Origin: Deltaproteobacteria bacterium
GTDB taxonomy: Bacteria > Desulfobacterota > Desulfomonilia > UBA1062
Length of the DNA: 64,000 nucleotides
Direction of reading: 5' to 3'
NCBI GenBank assembly: GCA_015486075.1
Contig: WFSG01000033.1
Span: 61,023-125,022 of the forward strand
Shown: piece after piece, positions 9,012 to 14,548 of the stretch
Numbering within the stretch: the first letter of the stretch is position 1
Layout of the letters: every line of letters begins with the position of its first letter
Made by a program: the position numbers and the translations under genes
The notes under the pieces: generated by a model
What the model was told of the DNA's origin: nothing
Database searches by the model: none
What the model saw: only the letters and a program-made list of their open reading frames with translations

Positions 9012-9887
9012 ATGTTTGGAATAAAGGATAAAAGAGGTAATGGTAAAGAGGGGAGGTTGTATATCGTCCCCACGCCTATAGGTAATTTTGGTGATATAAG
9101 CTTGAGGGCGCTCGAGGTTCTTAAGAAAGTGGACACCATAGCATGTGAAGACTCGAGAAGGACCAGAAAGCTACTCTCCCACTTCAATATTACCAAACCC
9201 CTGATAACATACGAGAAATTCTCGGAAGCCAGGAAGGCGGAACAGATAATAGAGGCCATTAAGACTGGTAGTAAGGTAGCCCTTGTGTGCGATGCCGGTA
9301 TGCCAGGTATAAGTGACCCAGGTTCTATACTGGTATCAAGGGCACGTTCGTATGGTATAAGGGTGGAGGCATTACCGGGTCCAAGCGCCCTTGTGACAGC
9401 CCTTGCAGGATGCGGCTATACTGGTCCCTTTAGGTTCCTTGAGTTTTTTCCTAGGAAAAGATCCTTTCGCATGAGGGAGATTGCAAGGATGGCAGTAAGC
9501 AGAGATCTGGTTGTATTCTACGAGTCCCCAAGAAGAGTTGTGAGTACATTAAAATCCATAAGGGATGTAATAGGTGATCGAGAGGTATGCGTGGCAAGGG
9601 AAGTCTCTAAGCTTTACGAGGAGTACATATCAGGTCCTCTATCCGATGTGATATCAAGGCTGGAGAGAGAACCAGTAAGGGGAGAGATCACGGTTATTGT
9701 GCGGGGAAGTGAACCCATTGATGAGGTAGATGAGTCATTCGTTGCGGAAAAGGCTAGGGAATTAATGGCAAAGGGTTATACAAGGAGGGATATAATAGAT
9801 ATATTAGCCGGCGAGATAGGATATACAAAGACTAAGGTATACGATCTCTTAATTAAAATGGCCGAGCAAGGAGAGAATCAAGGCTAA
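9012..9887 (+). CDS. rsmI: 16S rRNA (cytidine1402-2'-O)-methyltransferase
   Basis: LYIVPTPIGN, ACEDSR, DAGMPGISDPG, FYESPRR, AREVSKLYEE, RGEITV. Confidence 0.95.
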   Translation: MFGIKDKRGNGKEGRLYIVPTPIGNFGDISLRALEVLKKVDTIACEDSRRTRKLLSHFNITKPLITYEKFSEARKAEQIIEAIKTGSKVALVCDAGMPGISDPGSILVSRARSYGIRVEALPGPSALVTALAGCGYTGPFRFLEFFPRKRSFRMREIARMAVSRDLVVFYESPRRVVSTLKSIRDVIGDREVCVAREVSKLYEEYISGPLSDVISRLEREPVRGEITVIVRGSEPIDEVDESFVAEKARELMAKGYTRRDIIDILAGEIGYTKTKVYDLLIKMAEQGENQG

Positions 9888-9912
9888 AGTATATGGTGTA
9901 ACCTGACGATAA
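9885..9912 (+). promoter_or_regulatory. Sigma28 (FliA)-like promoter
   Basis: TAAAG-N15-GACGATAA, 32 nt upstream of ATG 9945. Confidence 0.6.
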
Positions 9913-9944
9913 GATGAATGTAATTCTAACCTGGAGGGAACGAG

Positions 9945-10217
9945 ATGAGGATAAACCCCGATATGTCAAGTAATATAATAGGAGTTACTAAAAAGGACAG
10001 TGAGAAGAAACCAGGAAAGCTCCACGGGTCGCCCGGGGAGAGACATGATAAGGTTTATGACAAGGTCAAGGTAGAAAATAAGTATGCAGCTAATGTCCAT
10101 GTTGACGGTGTTGACGAGGCAAAAGATATCCTTTCAAACATTGTTAATGAACTTCCATCGAGTAACAAAGATCTGCATAATCTCGACGTACACAGGCTTA
10201 TAGGTCTTTTTCAGTAG
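9945..10217 (+). CDS. 90-aa hypothetical protein resembling the flagellin C-terminal (D0) segment
   Basis: GGAGGG RBS. ENKYAANVHVDGVDEA and HNLDVHRLIGLF match the flagellin C-terminal pattern ENxxAAxxxIxDxDxA ... NxxxxxxLxLL. Confidence 0.6.
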   Translation: MRINPDMSSNIIGVTKKDSEKKPGKLHGSPGERHDKVYDKVKVENKYAANVHVDGVDEAKDILSNIVNELPSSNKDLHNLDVHRLIGLFQ

Positions 10218-10239: not shown

Positions 10240-11304
10240 TCATTGATTGTCCTCAATCGATCTCTGGGCATACATGTTTCTTATTCTGTCAAGCCTTCTC
10301 CTGAGCTCGGGTACCAATATCCTAGATGGATCAGGGGGTTTTCTGATAAACAGATAATAGTCCTCACCAATGTAAGGCCCTTCTATTGCCCCCGTGTAAT
10401 GACGTGCAGTTACATCTGATACGCTCAATATGGCCAGCTCCCTTGTTATATCAGGCACATCTTTTGCTGTATCCCTTAGTGGCCAGAACATGGGCCAGTG
10501 ATGTACCTCAATGCATTTGCATACGTTTTCAGGAATATTCCATTTCCTTGCCAACATGGCGCCTAGGCGGGCATGGTCAATTCCGAATAAATCGATCTCC
10601 TGCCTTATCCTGGCCCTTGGATCTTCTGGTATGTTTTCCTTTTCCTGCTGGGAGATATTCTTGTGTAAGGTGTTTCTCCCTATGTCGTGCATCATTGCCA
10701 TGGTAACAAGTGTGCCGGCATTCGATGCCATGCCTATTGAATTTGAGATATACGCTGCAATTATTGAAGTGATGTAGGCATGGAACCACTCGGAGCGTGA
10801 CGGTCTTATACCAGACTTGTTCATACTTTCCTCAATGACTATCCTTGATACCTCGGCTGAACCTAGGAGAACAACTGCGTTAAAGATGTTGTCGACCTTT
10901 TGTACCAAGCCGTAGAAAGGGGAATTTGCCCTCTGAAGTACGAAGGATGTAAGCCCTTGGTCAGACGCTATAAGCTGCCCTATGTCTTTTGCACTTACCT
11001 CAGGGGCATTGAGCTTGTATATGAGCTCCGTAACCAATGGTGATACCCCCTCGCTTACCCCTACAAGTTCAGGTACGGTGTCTGGAAGATAAGAATTTAC
11101 TTTTCTCTCAGGTCTCCAGTCTAGTTTGTAGGCGTCTTTTAATGAGGCGATCTCATCTTCTGTGGGTGTTTCTAGGAAACGTGCAGGTGCCTTGTTTAAC
11201 CTTGGCTTGTTTACTTTCTGTTTCCTAATTCTCCACAGGAGCAGGACCGTGAGCACGCATAGCAGTACGTACAGTAATATACCCGTGAGTTCGTACACTC
11301 CCAT
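10240..11304 (-). CDS. HDOD-domain protein with N-terminal transmembrane anchor
   Basis: DQGLTSFVLQRANSPFYG, AVVLLG, MMHDIG, IDHARLGAMLARKWNIP. Hydrophobic N-terminus. Confidence 0.88.
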   Translation of the reverse strand: MGVYELTGILLYVLLCVLTVLLLWRIRKQKVNKPRLNKAPARFLETPTEDEIASLKDAYKLDWRPERKVNSYLPDTVPELVGVSEGVSPLVTELIYKLNAPEVSAKDIGQLIASDQGLTSFVLQRANSPFYGLVQKVDNIFNAVVLLGSAEVSRIVIEESMNKSGIRPSRSEWFHAYITSIIAAYISNSIGMASNAGTLVTMAMMHDIGRNTLHKNISQQEKENIPEDPRARIRQEIDLFGIDHARLGAMLARKWNIPENVCKCIEVHHWPMFWPLRDTAKDVPDITRELAILSVSDVTARHYTGAIEGPYIGEDYYLFIRKPPDPSRILVPELRRRLDRIRNMYAQRSIEDNQ

Positions 11305-11311
11305 AAAGGGG

Positions 11312-11339
11312 ATATCGTTATTTCTAAAACTTATCTTGA
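11312..11339 (-). promoter_or_regulatory. Sigma28-like promoter (putative leaderless)
   Basis: Minus strand TCAAG-N15-AACGATAT, ending 7 nt before ATG 11304. No SD present. Confidence 0.45.
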
Positions 11340-11347
11340 GGCGGTTG

Positions 11348-13540
11348 CTAGATGTGGCTAGGCATTATAGGAATGCCCTCGAAAGGTTCCCTGAATATGA
11401 GTGGAAAAACATCCAAGACATTATTTGCGTATAGAATCTCAGCTGCAATAGACCTGTCTTTTAGCATGCGCTCCAGGTCAGGCCTGTTCTTGGCAGGGAG
11501 AATAATGCGTTTTAAATTGCTCCTTACACCAGCCAAAACCTTTTCCTTTATGCCACCAACAGGTAGTATCCTACCGCTCAGCGTTACTTCGCCTGTGATT
11601 GCTGTATCGTTCCTAATGGGTCTCCCTGTTAACAGGGAGACAAGTGCGCAAAGCATTGCAAGACCTGCAGATGGACCGTCTTTGGATATAGCACCCATGG
11701 GTACATGTATATTGATGTCAATCTTGGAGAAATCCGCTTCTATGCCCAGCATATTGGCATTGCTCTTGATGTAACCAAGGGCTATCCTTGCAGATTCCTG
11801 CATGATCGTACCCATGTTGCCGGTAAGTTCCAGTTTGCCGCTTCCAGAGCTATGCGATGATTCTATAATCAGTATTTCTCCTCCTGCCTGGGTCCATGCA
11901 AGACCTGTGGATATGCCCACCCTGTCATCTTCAAGCGCGTTCTGCCTGAAACGGGTTGCAGGTCCTAGGAACTCCTTTACAGTACTCCTGTCCACCTTTT
12001 TAGGAACGACCTCTCCCGAGGCCTTTTTCCTGGCAAGCTTGCGGTAGACTGACTCTATTTTCTTCTCAAGTCCCCTTACACCTGCTTCCATGGTGTAGTC
12101 ACCTATGATGGTCTTTATTGCATTATCAGTGAATACTGGATCATGCTTTTCAAACCCCACGGCCTTGGCCTTTTTCGGCACCAGGTGTAGCTTTGCTATC
12201 TGTAATTTCTCTTCTTCGGTATAGCCTGATATCTCTATGACCTCCATCCTGTCGAGAAGGGTGGGTAATATGGTTTCCGTTGTATTGGCCGTGGCTATGA
12301 ACATGACCTTAGACAGGTCAAACGGTATCTCTAAATAGTTATCCTTAAAAGAGAAGTTTTGCTCGGGGTCTAGGATCTCCAGGAGGGCTGATGCTGGATC
12401 ACCCCTGAAATCCTTGCCAACCTTGTCGATCTCGTCAAGTACGAACACAGGGTTGTTTGAACCGCATCTCTGTATCTCCTTTATGATCCTACCAGACATC
12501 GCACCTATGTATGTACGCCTGTGACCCCTTATTTCAGCTTCGTCTCGTATGCCTCCAAGGGATATGCGTACGTAGCGCCTGCCCATGGCTTCTGCAATGC
12601 TCTTACCAAGGGATGTCTTTCCTACACCGGGTGGTCCACTAAAACACAATATAGACCCCTTCGCCACTGGATTTAACTTTTTGACTGCCAGGAATTCTAG
12701 TATGCGTTCCTTTACATCATTTAGGTCAAAATGGTCGCGGTCAAGTATAGCCTTTGCCCGTGGTATGTCTATATCATCCTGCGTACTGTCCTCCCATGGC
12801 ATGTCGAGGACAAATTCTACGTAACCCCTGCACACTGAATATTCAGGAGATGAAGGATGAATGAACCTTAGCTTGCCCATCTCCTTTTCAATCACCATCC
12901 TTACATCTTCTGGCAAAGAGGTATGTTCTATTCTTTCCTCTAGGTCTTTTATGTCCTCAATGAAAGGATTGCCCGTTTTAAGGGACAAATTTCTGCCTGT
13001 TCTTGTACTTTGCTTGTTTATGAAGGAAAAGAGGAGCTTTAACCTAGCCATGCTATCGGGCGTGTTCAGCAACTTGGACTTTTCCACTAGGCCCAAATTC
13101 AGAGAGCTGGCCACCATGTCCGTGAACTGGCCCGGGTGTTTTATCTTGGATACGCTACTTCCCCCTGGCAGCAGCAACCTGACAAGTGCCTTTATACCCT
13201 GCATCAGTCCGTCGTTGATAAGGTTCTTTTCATACACGTCAGGCATGTCCACTAAATCAACGAATCCTTGTACAGCATCAAGGCTTTCCTTTGCCCTGAC
13301 GCGGCATATGCCTTCCAGGGATACAGATGTATCACTATACTCATTTACAACGCACCTGATACCTATATCATCTATTCTGACCGGTTGCCGGAAGAAGATG
13401 GCTATCTCGTAAACCCCAGAGATATCGGGTATAGCTATTCTTTTTCTGTCGATCGTGAAGATGTTTCCAGGTAAGTACACGTTATCTTCTATTACAAGTA
13501 CGTACATGGCTTTTATTGGCCTCTTGCCTATATTATACAT
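11348..13540 (-). CDS. lon: ATP-dependent Lon protease (paralog with divergent N-domain)
   Basis: GPPGVGKTS Walker A, LDEIDK, RRTYIGAM, KDGPSAG catalytic Ser, GGIKEK catalytic Lys. Start may be 13507. Confidence 0.95.
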   Translation of the reverse strand: MYNIGKRPIKAMYVLVIEDNVYLPGNIFTIDRKRIAIPDISGVYEIAIFFRQPVRIDDIGIRCVVNEYSDTSVSLEGICRVRAKESLDAVQGFVDLVDMPDVYEKNLINDGLMQGIKALVRLLLPGGSSVSKIKHPGQFTDMVASSLNLGLVEKSKLLNTPDSMARLKLLFSFINKQSTRTGRNLSLKTGNPFIEDIKDLEERIEHTSLPEDVRMVIEKEMGKLRFIHPSSPEYSVCRGYVEFVLDMPWEDSTQDDIDIPRAKAILDRDHFDLNDVKERILEFLAVKKLNPVAKGSILCFSGPPGVGKTSLGKSIAEAMGRRYVRISLGGIRDEAEIRGHRRTYIGAMSGRIIKEIQRCGSNNPVFVLDEIDKVGKDFRGDPASALLEILDPEQNFSFKDNYLEIPFDLSKVMFIATANTTETILPTLLDRMEVIEISGYTEEEKLQIAKLHLVPKKAKAVGFEKHDPVFTDNAIKTIIGDYTMEAGVRGLEKKIESVYRKLARKKASGEVVPKKVDRSTVKEFLGPATRFRQNALEDDRVGISTGLAWTQAGGEILIIESSHSSGSGKLELTGNMGTIMQESARIALGYIKSNANMLGIEADFSKIDINIHVPMGAISKDGPSAGLAMLCALVSLLTGRPIRNDTAITGEVTLSGRILPVGGIKEKVLAGVRSNLKRIILPAKNRPDLERMLKDRSIAAEILYANNVLDVFPLIFREPFEGIPIMPSHI

Positions 13541-13612
13541 ATTGGATGCCTGTTATCAAGGAGATCTGCTTAATCTTCCAATAAGGCCATATCGACAATA
13601 AAAGGTAACAAC

Positions 13613-13640
13613 TAAAGTAACCCCCGTGCATTACCGAGAA
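13613..13640 (+). promoter_or_regulatory. Sigma28-like promoter (putative leaderless)
   Basis: TAAAG-N15-ACCGAGAA, ending 8 nt before ATG 13649. Confidence 0.45.
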
Positions 13641-13648
13641 AGCTGACT

Positions 13649-14548
13649 ATGGATGGCGAAATAAATAGGCCCATGGAGGAGACAAGAAAACATATTCTTG
13701 ATACCCTGGACAAGGCGCAGGAGATCCTGACCCTACCGTCTGTCATACAAAAGGTTCTAGAGATAACAAGCAGTAGGAACAGTTCCGTATCAGAACTAAA
13801 GGATATTATAGAAAGTGATCCAGCGCTTACGACCAGAATACTATCCGTTGCAAACTCGGCGTACTATGGCTTTGTAAGGAAGGTGTCAACGGTAAGTCAT
13901 GCCGTTGTGGTGCTTGGCTTTGAAGAGATAAAAAACATTGTTCTTAGCATGAGTGTACTCAGGCTCTTTGACAGAAAGGGATCCGTCTTCGTGGAAAACC
14001 TGTGGAGGCATAGTTTGGCAGTAGCAGTTGCCACTAGGATGGTGGCCAGTCATCTTGGGCTTAAACTGGAAGGCAAATATTTTGTTGGGGGGCTTCTCCA
14101 CGATATAGGTAAGATATTTCTCTACCAGTACATGCCTGAGGTATACCGTGTGCTCTTGAAAGAGATGTTAAGCCAAGACAATAACTACACATACCACAGG
14201 TTGGAAGCCCTTATCTGTGGTATATCACACGAGGAGATAGGTGGTAGACTCCTCAATTCCTGGGGCTTTCCCATTGATATCACAGATGCAGTGAAGTACC
14301 ATCACAGGCCAGGGCTTGCCTTAAAAGACAAGGTCTTTACAGTATGCATACACATTGCGGACATCCTGTGCAGTATAAAGGGAATTACACCCCTAAAGGA
14401 TCATTTCTTTCTACCTGTGGATAGGGATATACTGGATGTCCTATACTCGTTGAAGGAAAACTTCGCTACGGACGACATGATCCATCTCCTTGAGAGACTT
14501 GATCTTGAAATAGAAAGACACAGCAGCTTTGTTACCATGTTCAGGTGA
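13649..14548 (+). CDS. HDOD-domain protein
   Basis: LTLPSV, SDPALTTRILSVANSAYYG, LWRHSLAVA, GLLHDIGK, SHEEIG..LLNSWGFP. Confidence 0.92.
   Translation: MDGEINRPMEETRKHILDTLDKAQEILTLPSVIQKVLEITSSRNSSVSELKDIIESDPALTTRILSVANSAYYGFVRKVSTVSHAVVVLGFEEIKNIVLSMSVLRLFDRKGSVFVENLWRHSLAVAVATRMVASHLGLKLEGKYFVGGLLHDIGKIFLYQYMPEVYRVLLKEMLSQDNNYTYHRLEALICGISHEEIGGRLLNSWGFPIDITDAVKYHHRPGLALKDKVFTVCIHIADILCSIKGITPLKDHFFLPVDRDILDVLYSLKENFATDDMIHLLERLDLEIERHSSFVTMFR

Follow-up and report, generated by a model that had tools for sequence, protein, structure and literature searches.

A candidate FliW-binding protein encoded by a small, putatively late flagellar gene in one family of uncultured bacteria

The window analysed here is a 64,000-nucleotide stretch of a Deltaproteobacteria bacterium assembly (GCA_015486075.1, contig WFSG01000033.1, positions 61,023–125,022). 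A small gene within it encodes a 90-aa protein (MRINPDMSSNIIGVTKKDSEKKPGKLHGSPGERHDKVYDKVKVENKYAANVHVDGVDEAKDILSNIVNELPSSNKDLHNLDVHRLIGLFQ), very probably a member of the late flagellar regulon that takes part in assembling the flagellum or in controlling its assembly. The central segment of the protein aligns in a single register with the C-terminal end of the flagellin D1-C helix and with helix alpha-1 plus the C-terminal extension of CsrA. From its sequence we tentatively read the protein, with somewhat less than even confidence, as a disordered late-flagellar FliW binder that would act as a third competitor in the flagellin–FliW–CsrA switch. FliW–CsrA is the ancestral and most widespread bacterial coupling of flagellin translation to flagellar assembly, and the flagellin–FliW–CsrA partner switch has so far been described as a three-protein circuit. 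The literature searched on FliW partners names only flagellin and CsrA as ligands and describes no protein of this kind. Judged by its motif, the small protein may be a further ligand or decoy in FliW partner-switch logic, FlgM-like in spirit, and every database copy of it is unnamed.

The small gene, its promoter and its distribution

A translated search of 60 related genomes recovered intact orthologues of 86–90 aa (30–42% identity) in 27 of 37 genomes of the same family and in 0 of 24 genomes of the sister family. Synteny is kept among the orthologous loci, in the order PLP decarboxylase, rsmI, small ORF, HDOD gene and lon (Table 1), and substitutions between congeneric orthologues are 2–4-fold more frequent at third codon positions. 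A profile search of 5.8 billion proteins returned 115 clusters, all of about 87 aa. Given these orthologues, the synteny, the clusters and the third-position excess, the ORF is a genuine gene, and it is under purifying selection.

The database sequences in the 115 clusters are called 'hypothetical protein' or bear mutually inconsistent automatic names. Where a record names the organism, it is a MAG with the label Deltaproteobacteria, Desulfomonilia or Syntrophaceae; 'Phox-21' and UBA1062 are among them. The small protein was found only in one family of uncultured bacteria, which are relatives of sulfate reducers and of these two. A single-sequence search of the 5.8 billion proteins returned the 90-aa protein itself only, and an exhaustive phmmer search of 1.84 billion representatives yielded 12 small orthologues. 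Three giant repeat proteins also matched by phmmer were set aside as chance repeats (KTEVENAYQPHLHLG). Pfam and NCBIfam scans of the 90-aa protein gave no family match, and Pfam likewise gave none for the 23 orthologues that make up our first alignment (A1); a second alignment (A2) holds 60 sequences.

The strong ribosome-binding site read in the initial annotation stands, and G-rich Shine–Dalgarno sequences precede all orthologues. The 5' UTR is short, about 25–30 nt, and a scan for sigma-70 promoters and terminators returned nothing meaningful. Within the 5' UTR (9913–9944), a block, TGTAGAnCTCTnnAAAGGGGA, is kept across several genera (loci L010, L014, L017–L022, L024 and L026–L030) and could serve in translational control, for example as a CsrA site. 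Inspection of this short 5' UTR by eye for CsrA sites found only the GGA inside the Shine–Dalgarno sequence evident, which is uninformative.

Table 1. Positions in the window of the features discussed, with strand and supporting evidence.
Feature	Position	Strand	Evidence
rsmI, upstream neighbour of the small ORF	9012-9887	+	ORF list
Sigma-28 (FliA)-type promoter: TAAAG (9885-9889), 15-nt spacer, GACGATAA (9905-9912)	9885-9912	+	Sequence and conservation
Shine–Dalgarno sequence GGAGGG, 6 nt 5' of the ATG	9933-9938	+	Sequence read
Coding sequence of the 90-aa protein, stop codon included	9945-10217	+	ORF list, orthologues, codon-position excess
Conserved N-terminus MRINPDMSSNIIGV, family consensus MKINPExxNVINxVKK	9945-9986	+	Alignments A1 and A2
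Variable linker, Lys/Glu/Gln-rich, predicted disordered	9987-10052	+	Poorly conserved columns in A1 and A2; pLDDT below 50
Putative FliW-binding helix, residues 29-65, core V41-x-x-E44-N45-x-x-A48 ... A59	10029-10139	+	hhalign, BLASTP, invariance
C-terminal helices, residues 60-83, resembling the FlgL N-terminal D0 helix	10122-10193	+	hhalign P 0.0016
Membrane-anchored HDOD/HD protein, convergent neighbour	10240-11304	-	Pfam HDOD 6.5e-35
Sigma-28-type motif of the HDOD gene, TCAAG-N15-AACGATAT	11312-11339	-	T[CA]AAGA-N14-CCGATA in 6/6 orthologous loci
lon, adjoining the HDOD gene on the minus strand, HDOD gene after lon	11348-13540	-	ORF list

The sigma-28-type promoter, first noticed as TAAAG with a 15-nt spacer, proved to be conserved far beyond chance. 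About 19 of 23 orthologous loci have the motif TAAAG(T)-N13-15-(G/A)(C/A)CGATA some 60 nt 5' of the start codon, and three of the remaining four deviate in the -35 box only (TCAAG). Spacers are unrelated between genera and the motif is nonetheless kept. The same motif stands 5' of the flagellin genes (at about -160) and the flgL genes (at about -37) of these genomes. A strict version of the pattern occurred at 25 sites in the genome that carries the window, compared with 8.2 in shuffled sequence; sites precede flagellin, flgL, fliS and the small ORF, and another lies 239 nt before flgM. A TAAA-N15-GCCGATAA-type promoter is thereby common to the small gene, flagellin and other late genes. At the level of sequence, conservation across genera and the sharing of the motif by flagellin, flgL and fliS indicate that it is the FliA promoter of this lineage and that the small gene very probably belongs to the late flagellar regulon.

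Phylogenetic co-occurrence with flagellar genes had been named in the initial annotation as a check, and the distribution agrees with it. The small gene is present only in flagellated genomes, in 27 of the 32 that have flagellin/FlgL, FliW and CsrA and in none of the 29 that lack them (24 of the sister family, four of genus g9, and genome G004), a pattern based on few independent losses. The organism's own FliW is encoded at C32:42829–43263 on the minus strand. Of the five flagellated genomes without the small gene, two have a contig that breaks off inside rsmI and two are assemblies without rsmI. The fifth (G003, 78% complete) has lon directly adjoining rsmI, and the small gene is truly absent at the locus. 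The HDOD gene is gone together with the small ORF in G003, in G004 and in genus g9; in G004 and the non-flagellated g9 genomes both genes are missing beside rsmI.

Resemblance to the FliW-binding regions of flagellin and CsrA

FliW contacts have been mapped on both of its ligands. Binding to flagellin needs a conserved Asn (N237 in T. pallidum, N255 in B. subtilis, N287 in B. burgdorferi), and the N287A change in B. burgdorferi FlaB abolishes it (PMC12327847). FliW protects residues 240–260 of Hag, in helix D1-C, in HDX-MS (PMC6070490). In C. jejuni CsrA, saturating alanine scanning singled out V51 and N55 as the only residues on which FliW binding depends; FliW-type CsrAs all have N55, and in the G. 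thermodenitrificans structure the equivalent residues, I52 and N56, are part of the interface (PMC7829508). Geobacter sulfurreducens CsrA likewise requires N55 (PMC13407953).

The residues invariant among 60 sequences of the small protein are M1, D39, E44, N45, A48 and A59, and position 41 is V or I in both alignments; the core of the protein encoded in the window reads V41-K-V-E44-N45-K-Y-A48. The family thus combines a conserved Asn with an aliphatic residue at the fourth position before it, in a helix aligned to CsrA N55 and V51 and to flagellin N255. These positions coincide with the published FliW-contact residues, so that the most conserved residues of the small protein reproduce the signature of both known FliW ligands.

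Comparison of the 23 orthologues with the family's flagellins by hhalign aligned residues 41–65 with flagellin 311–335 (VTIENFQSSESVIRDVDMASEMVSF) over 25 columns (P 5.2e-4, score 28.8, probability of only 31%). In 150 column shuffles, a control that destroys helical periodicity and thus overstates significance, scores were 12.1 +/- 2.2 with a maximum of 19.7, none reaching 28.8, and the reversed alignment scored 11.0. When the same 23-orthologue profile was run against all PDB sequences, the best match was flagellin (E 0.036) at the same motif, aligning ivsvENrqAsksevenvdeAkell with NIAAENLQASESRIRDVDMAKEMV. The likeness first seen by eye between ENKYAANVHVDGVDEAKDI and the flagellin pattern ENxxAxxSxIxDxDxAxE is therefore upheld at profile level (hhalign P 5e-4). 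N45 aligns with N315 of the organism's own flagellin, which corresponds to N255 of B. subtilis Hag (the last 88 residues align ungapped to 6gow_D 217–304), and the small protein and the flagellin D1-C/D0-C junction, the FliW-binding region F2, are alike in VKVENKYAANVHVDGVDEAKDILSN and VTIENFQSSESVIRDVDMASEMVSF with the Asn in register.

The extent of the resemblance differs from what was initially supposed. The protein had been described as a mimic of the flagellin C-terminal D0 helix, and the matched motif runs from the C-terminal end of the D1-C helix into the start of D0, not D0 proper. Its end had been likened to the flagellin terminus ANQxPQxVLSLL; hhalign finds no match there, and a mimic of the D0-C terminus was rejected on that ground. 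Residues 60–83 match the N-terminal helix of FlgL instead, in an hhalign comparison of the C-terminal part of A1 (P 0.0016, 22 columns). The profile check against Flagellin_C (PF00700) came out negative, with no Pfam match at E up to 10 for any of the 23 members. The helices of Flagellin_N (PF00669) have no counterpart beyond a 4–9-residue (R/K)IN match at the extreme N-terminus, and BLASTP of the 90-aa protein against the organism's own flagellin returned nothing.

Like flagellin, the small protein has an M-R-I-N-like N-terminus, but it lacks N-D0/N-D1, most of D1-C and the D0-C terminus, and it cannot be a filament subunit. Campylobacter jejuni FlaC is a truncated flagellin-like protein of about 250 aa that is secreted through the flagellum. 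As a concept the two are alike, each a non-filament protein that retains flagellin terminal motifs; FlaC, however, has both complete terminal domains and the small protein one motif of roughly 25 residues.

The second resemblance is to CsrA. An hmmsearch with the family profile against 14,297 six-frame ORFs of the organism's own genome placed FlgL, CsrA, DnaB and flagellin at the top of the non-self matches, at E 0.4–1.7, which is not significant for any of them individually. Against 28 CsrA sequences of the family, hhalign aligned residues 29–63 of the small protein with CsrA 39–73 over 35 ungapped columns (P 8.9e-4, probability of only 23%), and 0 of 150 column shuffles reach this score, subject to the same overstatement. 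BLASTP against the organism's own CsrA gave 30% identity and 63% positives over 30 aa (E 8e-4), with HDKVYDKVKVENKYAANVHVDGVDEAKDIL and REEVYLRIQEENRRAAEVGKEDLSSANDLI as the aligned segments. This register places N45 on CsrA N55 and V41 on CsrA I51, the two positions at which substitutions abolish or weaken binding to FliW (PMC7829508). The CsrA and flagellin profiles compared with each other gave P 0.56, which is not significant, and their best local alignment nonetheless falls at the same motif. Both resemblances of the small protein are those of a helical motif of 25–35 residues.

Pfam CsrA (PF02599) matched none of the 23 members. The small protein shares with the C-terminal helix and extension of CsrA, the FliW-binding site, an ungapped stretch of 30–35 residues (HREEVYLRIQEENRRAAEVGKEDLSSANDLI and RHDKVYDKVKVENKYAANVHVDGVDEAKDIL). 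Unlike the CsrA proteins of B. subtilis, C. jejuni, G. thermodenitrificans (5DMB) and G. sulfurreducens, it has no beta-sheet RNA-binding core: the match covers only the last strand, helix and tail, and leaves out the five-stranded core with its RNA-binding residues such as R44. The termini of the small protein also differ from those of CsrA, and its gene lies apart from csrA behind a sigma-28 promoter of its own. We considered a whole-length but degenerate CsrA paralogue and rejected it, since the likeness sets in only at CsrA residue 39.

In the initial annotation the protein had been suggested to be a decoy or partner-switch regulator expressed late in flagellar assembly, with FliS as its partner. 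The late sigma-28 gene, the strict flagellar co-occurrence and the flagellin-like motif make such a regulator plausible, and it is the choice of partner that finds no support: the motif is common to CsrA's FliW-binding helix and centred on the Asn essential for FliW binding, which points to FliW rather than FliS. We regard it as distinctly unlikely that the protein is a FliS decoy or co-chaperone that imitates the flagellin C-terminus and modulates flagellin export or FlgM handling. Residues 53–63 or so (VDGVDEAKDIL) do line up with the beginning of the flagellin fragment in the FliS co-crystal (chain 1ory_B, which aligns with the organism's own flagellin 312–364), an overlap of only about 12 residues with the start of the FliS-bound segment. 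Like fliS, the small gene also belongs to the sigma-28 regulon, and FliS is reported to be bound by FlgM, which resembles the small protein in size and disorder. Most of the FliS interface, however, is formed by the D0-C helix and terminus of flagellin, and hhalign finds no similarity to either. Moreover, the invariant E44, N45 and A48 come before the FliS-bound segment and fall in the stretch protected by FliW (PMC6070490).

The resemblance to flagellin D1-C and the N-terminal helix of FlgL, taken with the flagellin-like N-terminus and late-class expression, could also describe an exported accessory or structural axial protein that acts at the hook–filament junction, as a cap or in filament-length control, with the likeness reflecting coiled-coil packing. 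We consider this improbable: at 90 aa and with predicted disorder the protein is too small for a D0/D1 four-helix subunit, and the equally good match to cytoplasmic CsrA would be left unexplained.

Some weight, though well short of that given to a FliW binder, goes to another late flagellar or motility function, for example as a partner of the co-inherited HDOD protein, in which case the motif likeness would be chance among Glu/Asn/Ala-rich helices. All of the similarity statistics are modest, and the small gene, which like the HDOD gene has a sigma-28 motif, is lost along with it. Against chance, two independent profile matches fall in the same register on experimentally defined FliW-contact residues, and the shuffled and reversed controls never reach the observed scores. 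FliW binding, for its part, leaves the invariant D39 and the conserved N- and C-termini unexplained.

Predicted disorder and a proposed partner switch

AlphaFold2 returned models of low confidence (mean pLDDT 55.7, pTM 0.25–0.26), with 23 or 60 sequences alike. Short helices were predicted at residues of about 34–48 (only 46–49 in the second model), 56–69 and 82–89, and residues 12–35 were modelled with very low confidence. FlgM and the flagellin termini are disordered alone and fold on a partner, and the low confidence of the models fits a protein that would behave in the same way.

The N-terminus begins like the organism's own FlgM (MKIND...) and flagellin (MGLRINTN...), and short hhalign matches were found to the N-termini of both. 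From the M-K/R-I-N start and the predicted disorder we infer that the conserved N-terminus may be a flagellar type III export signal. An N-terminal half resembling FlgM had been noted at the outset; the M-K/R-I-N start, the size and the disorder agree with this, but the hhalign comparison does not (P 0.024, reached by 8 of 150 shuffles), and the profile check against FlgM found no Pfam match at E up to 10 and an hhalign probability of 2%.

The similar size (87–90 compared with 106 aa), the M-K-I-N start, the predicted disorder and the sigma-28 promoter would also fit a further anti-sigma-28 factor of the FlgM type, strongly diverged and exported once the hook–basal body is complete. The chance of this being correct is nevertheless small. 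A canonical FlgM (PF04316, 54.8 bits) is already present in every flagellated genome of the family; the hhalign matches span only 5–14 columns; a genome-wide PF04316 search at E up to 10 misses the small ORF; and the sigma-binding C-terminal helices (G-x-Y-x-x-D...IA..LL) are absent. The FlgM hypothesis was rejected on the hhalign and shuffle results. The small protein and FlgM are alike in being small and disordered, with a sigma-28 promoter and an M-K-I-N start, and perhaps in being exported reporters of assembly state; the small protein differs in lacking significant profile similarity and sigma-28-binding helices, with canonical FlgM encoded elsewhere.

Returning to FliW as the partner, we hypothesize that the small protein, produced alongside flagellin, would bind FliW via its helix in competition with CsrA and flagellin and so shift the flagellin–FliW–CsrA partner switch. 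While cytoplasmic, it would occupy FliW, so that CsrA could repress flagellin translation. Export via the flagellar type III system, if it occurs, would remove the protein and free FliW to antagonise CsrA, and the cytoplasmic level of the protein would, as for FlgM and flagellin, signal the open or closed state of the export apparatus. The small protein would then be, if exported, a non-structural flagellin proxy in the partner switch.

In its fullest form this proposal makes the protein a fourth dedicated component of the partner switch, disordered, sigma-28-driven and probably exported, with a generic FliW-binding helix ([VI]-x-x-E-N-x-x-A), serving as a non-structural flagellin proxy or an anti-FliW that tunes CsrA activity to export status. 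We hold this extended version to be doubtful, and appreciably less likely than FliW binding as such. If true, it would bring to light a recognition motif common to CsrA and flagellin that accounts for the binding of both by FliW. A dedicated small protein with this helix would mean a further layer of regulation, in the form of an anti-FliW or a decoy that reports secretion, and would offer a minimal natural peptide with which to study FliW recognition of two unrelated partners. It would also put a name and a testable function on more than 100 'hypothetical' proteins of the lineage to which the phosphite-oxidising 'Phox-21' belongs. A short motif spotted by eye can be a real functional signature though no family profile detects it.

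Neighbouring genes and other sigma-28-type sites

In 6 of 6 orthologous loci, about 9 nt separate the end of the sigma-28-type motif of the convergent HDOD gene from the start codon, a distance that would imply a near-leaderless late flagellar mRNA. The HDOD/HD gene is accordingly listed here as a candidate member of the sigma-28 regulon.

Lon in the window is a 730-aa protease with a short N-terminal domain, and it is encoded between two HDOD proteins, the convergent neighbour of the small ORF on the minus strand and a second at 13649–14548 on the plus strand. Lon degrades flagellar regulators elsewhere, and for this reason the region at 11348–14548 may be a motility-linked signalling and proteolysis cluster.

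Four g9 genomes without flagellin, FliW and CsrA (G009, G017, G025 and G029) contain a 151–153-aa frame that matches PF04316 (FlgM) at 23–30 bits. The frame possibly encodes a repurposed anti-sigma-like protein.

At the flagellin genes themselves (contig C35:34902–36157 in the organism's own genome; L003 and L033–L053 for the orthologues), the sigma-28 motif lies about 115–175 nt 5' of the start codon, giving a long leader. Long flagellin leaders carry CsrA sites in other FliW-type systems. Strict sigma-28 motifs in the organism's own genome were also found before genes for type IV pilin-like, PilB/GspE-like ATPase and PilZ-like proteins (C16:19975, C18:22068 and C49:12643, respectively), which suggests that the FliA regulon of this organism extends beyond flagella.
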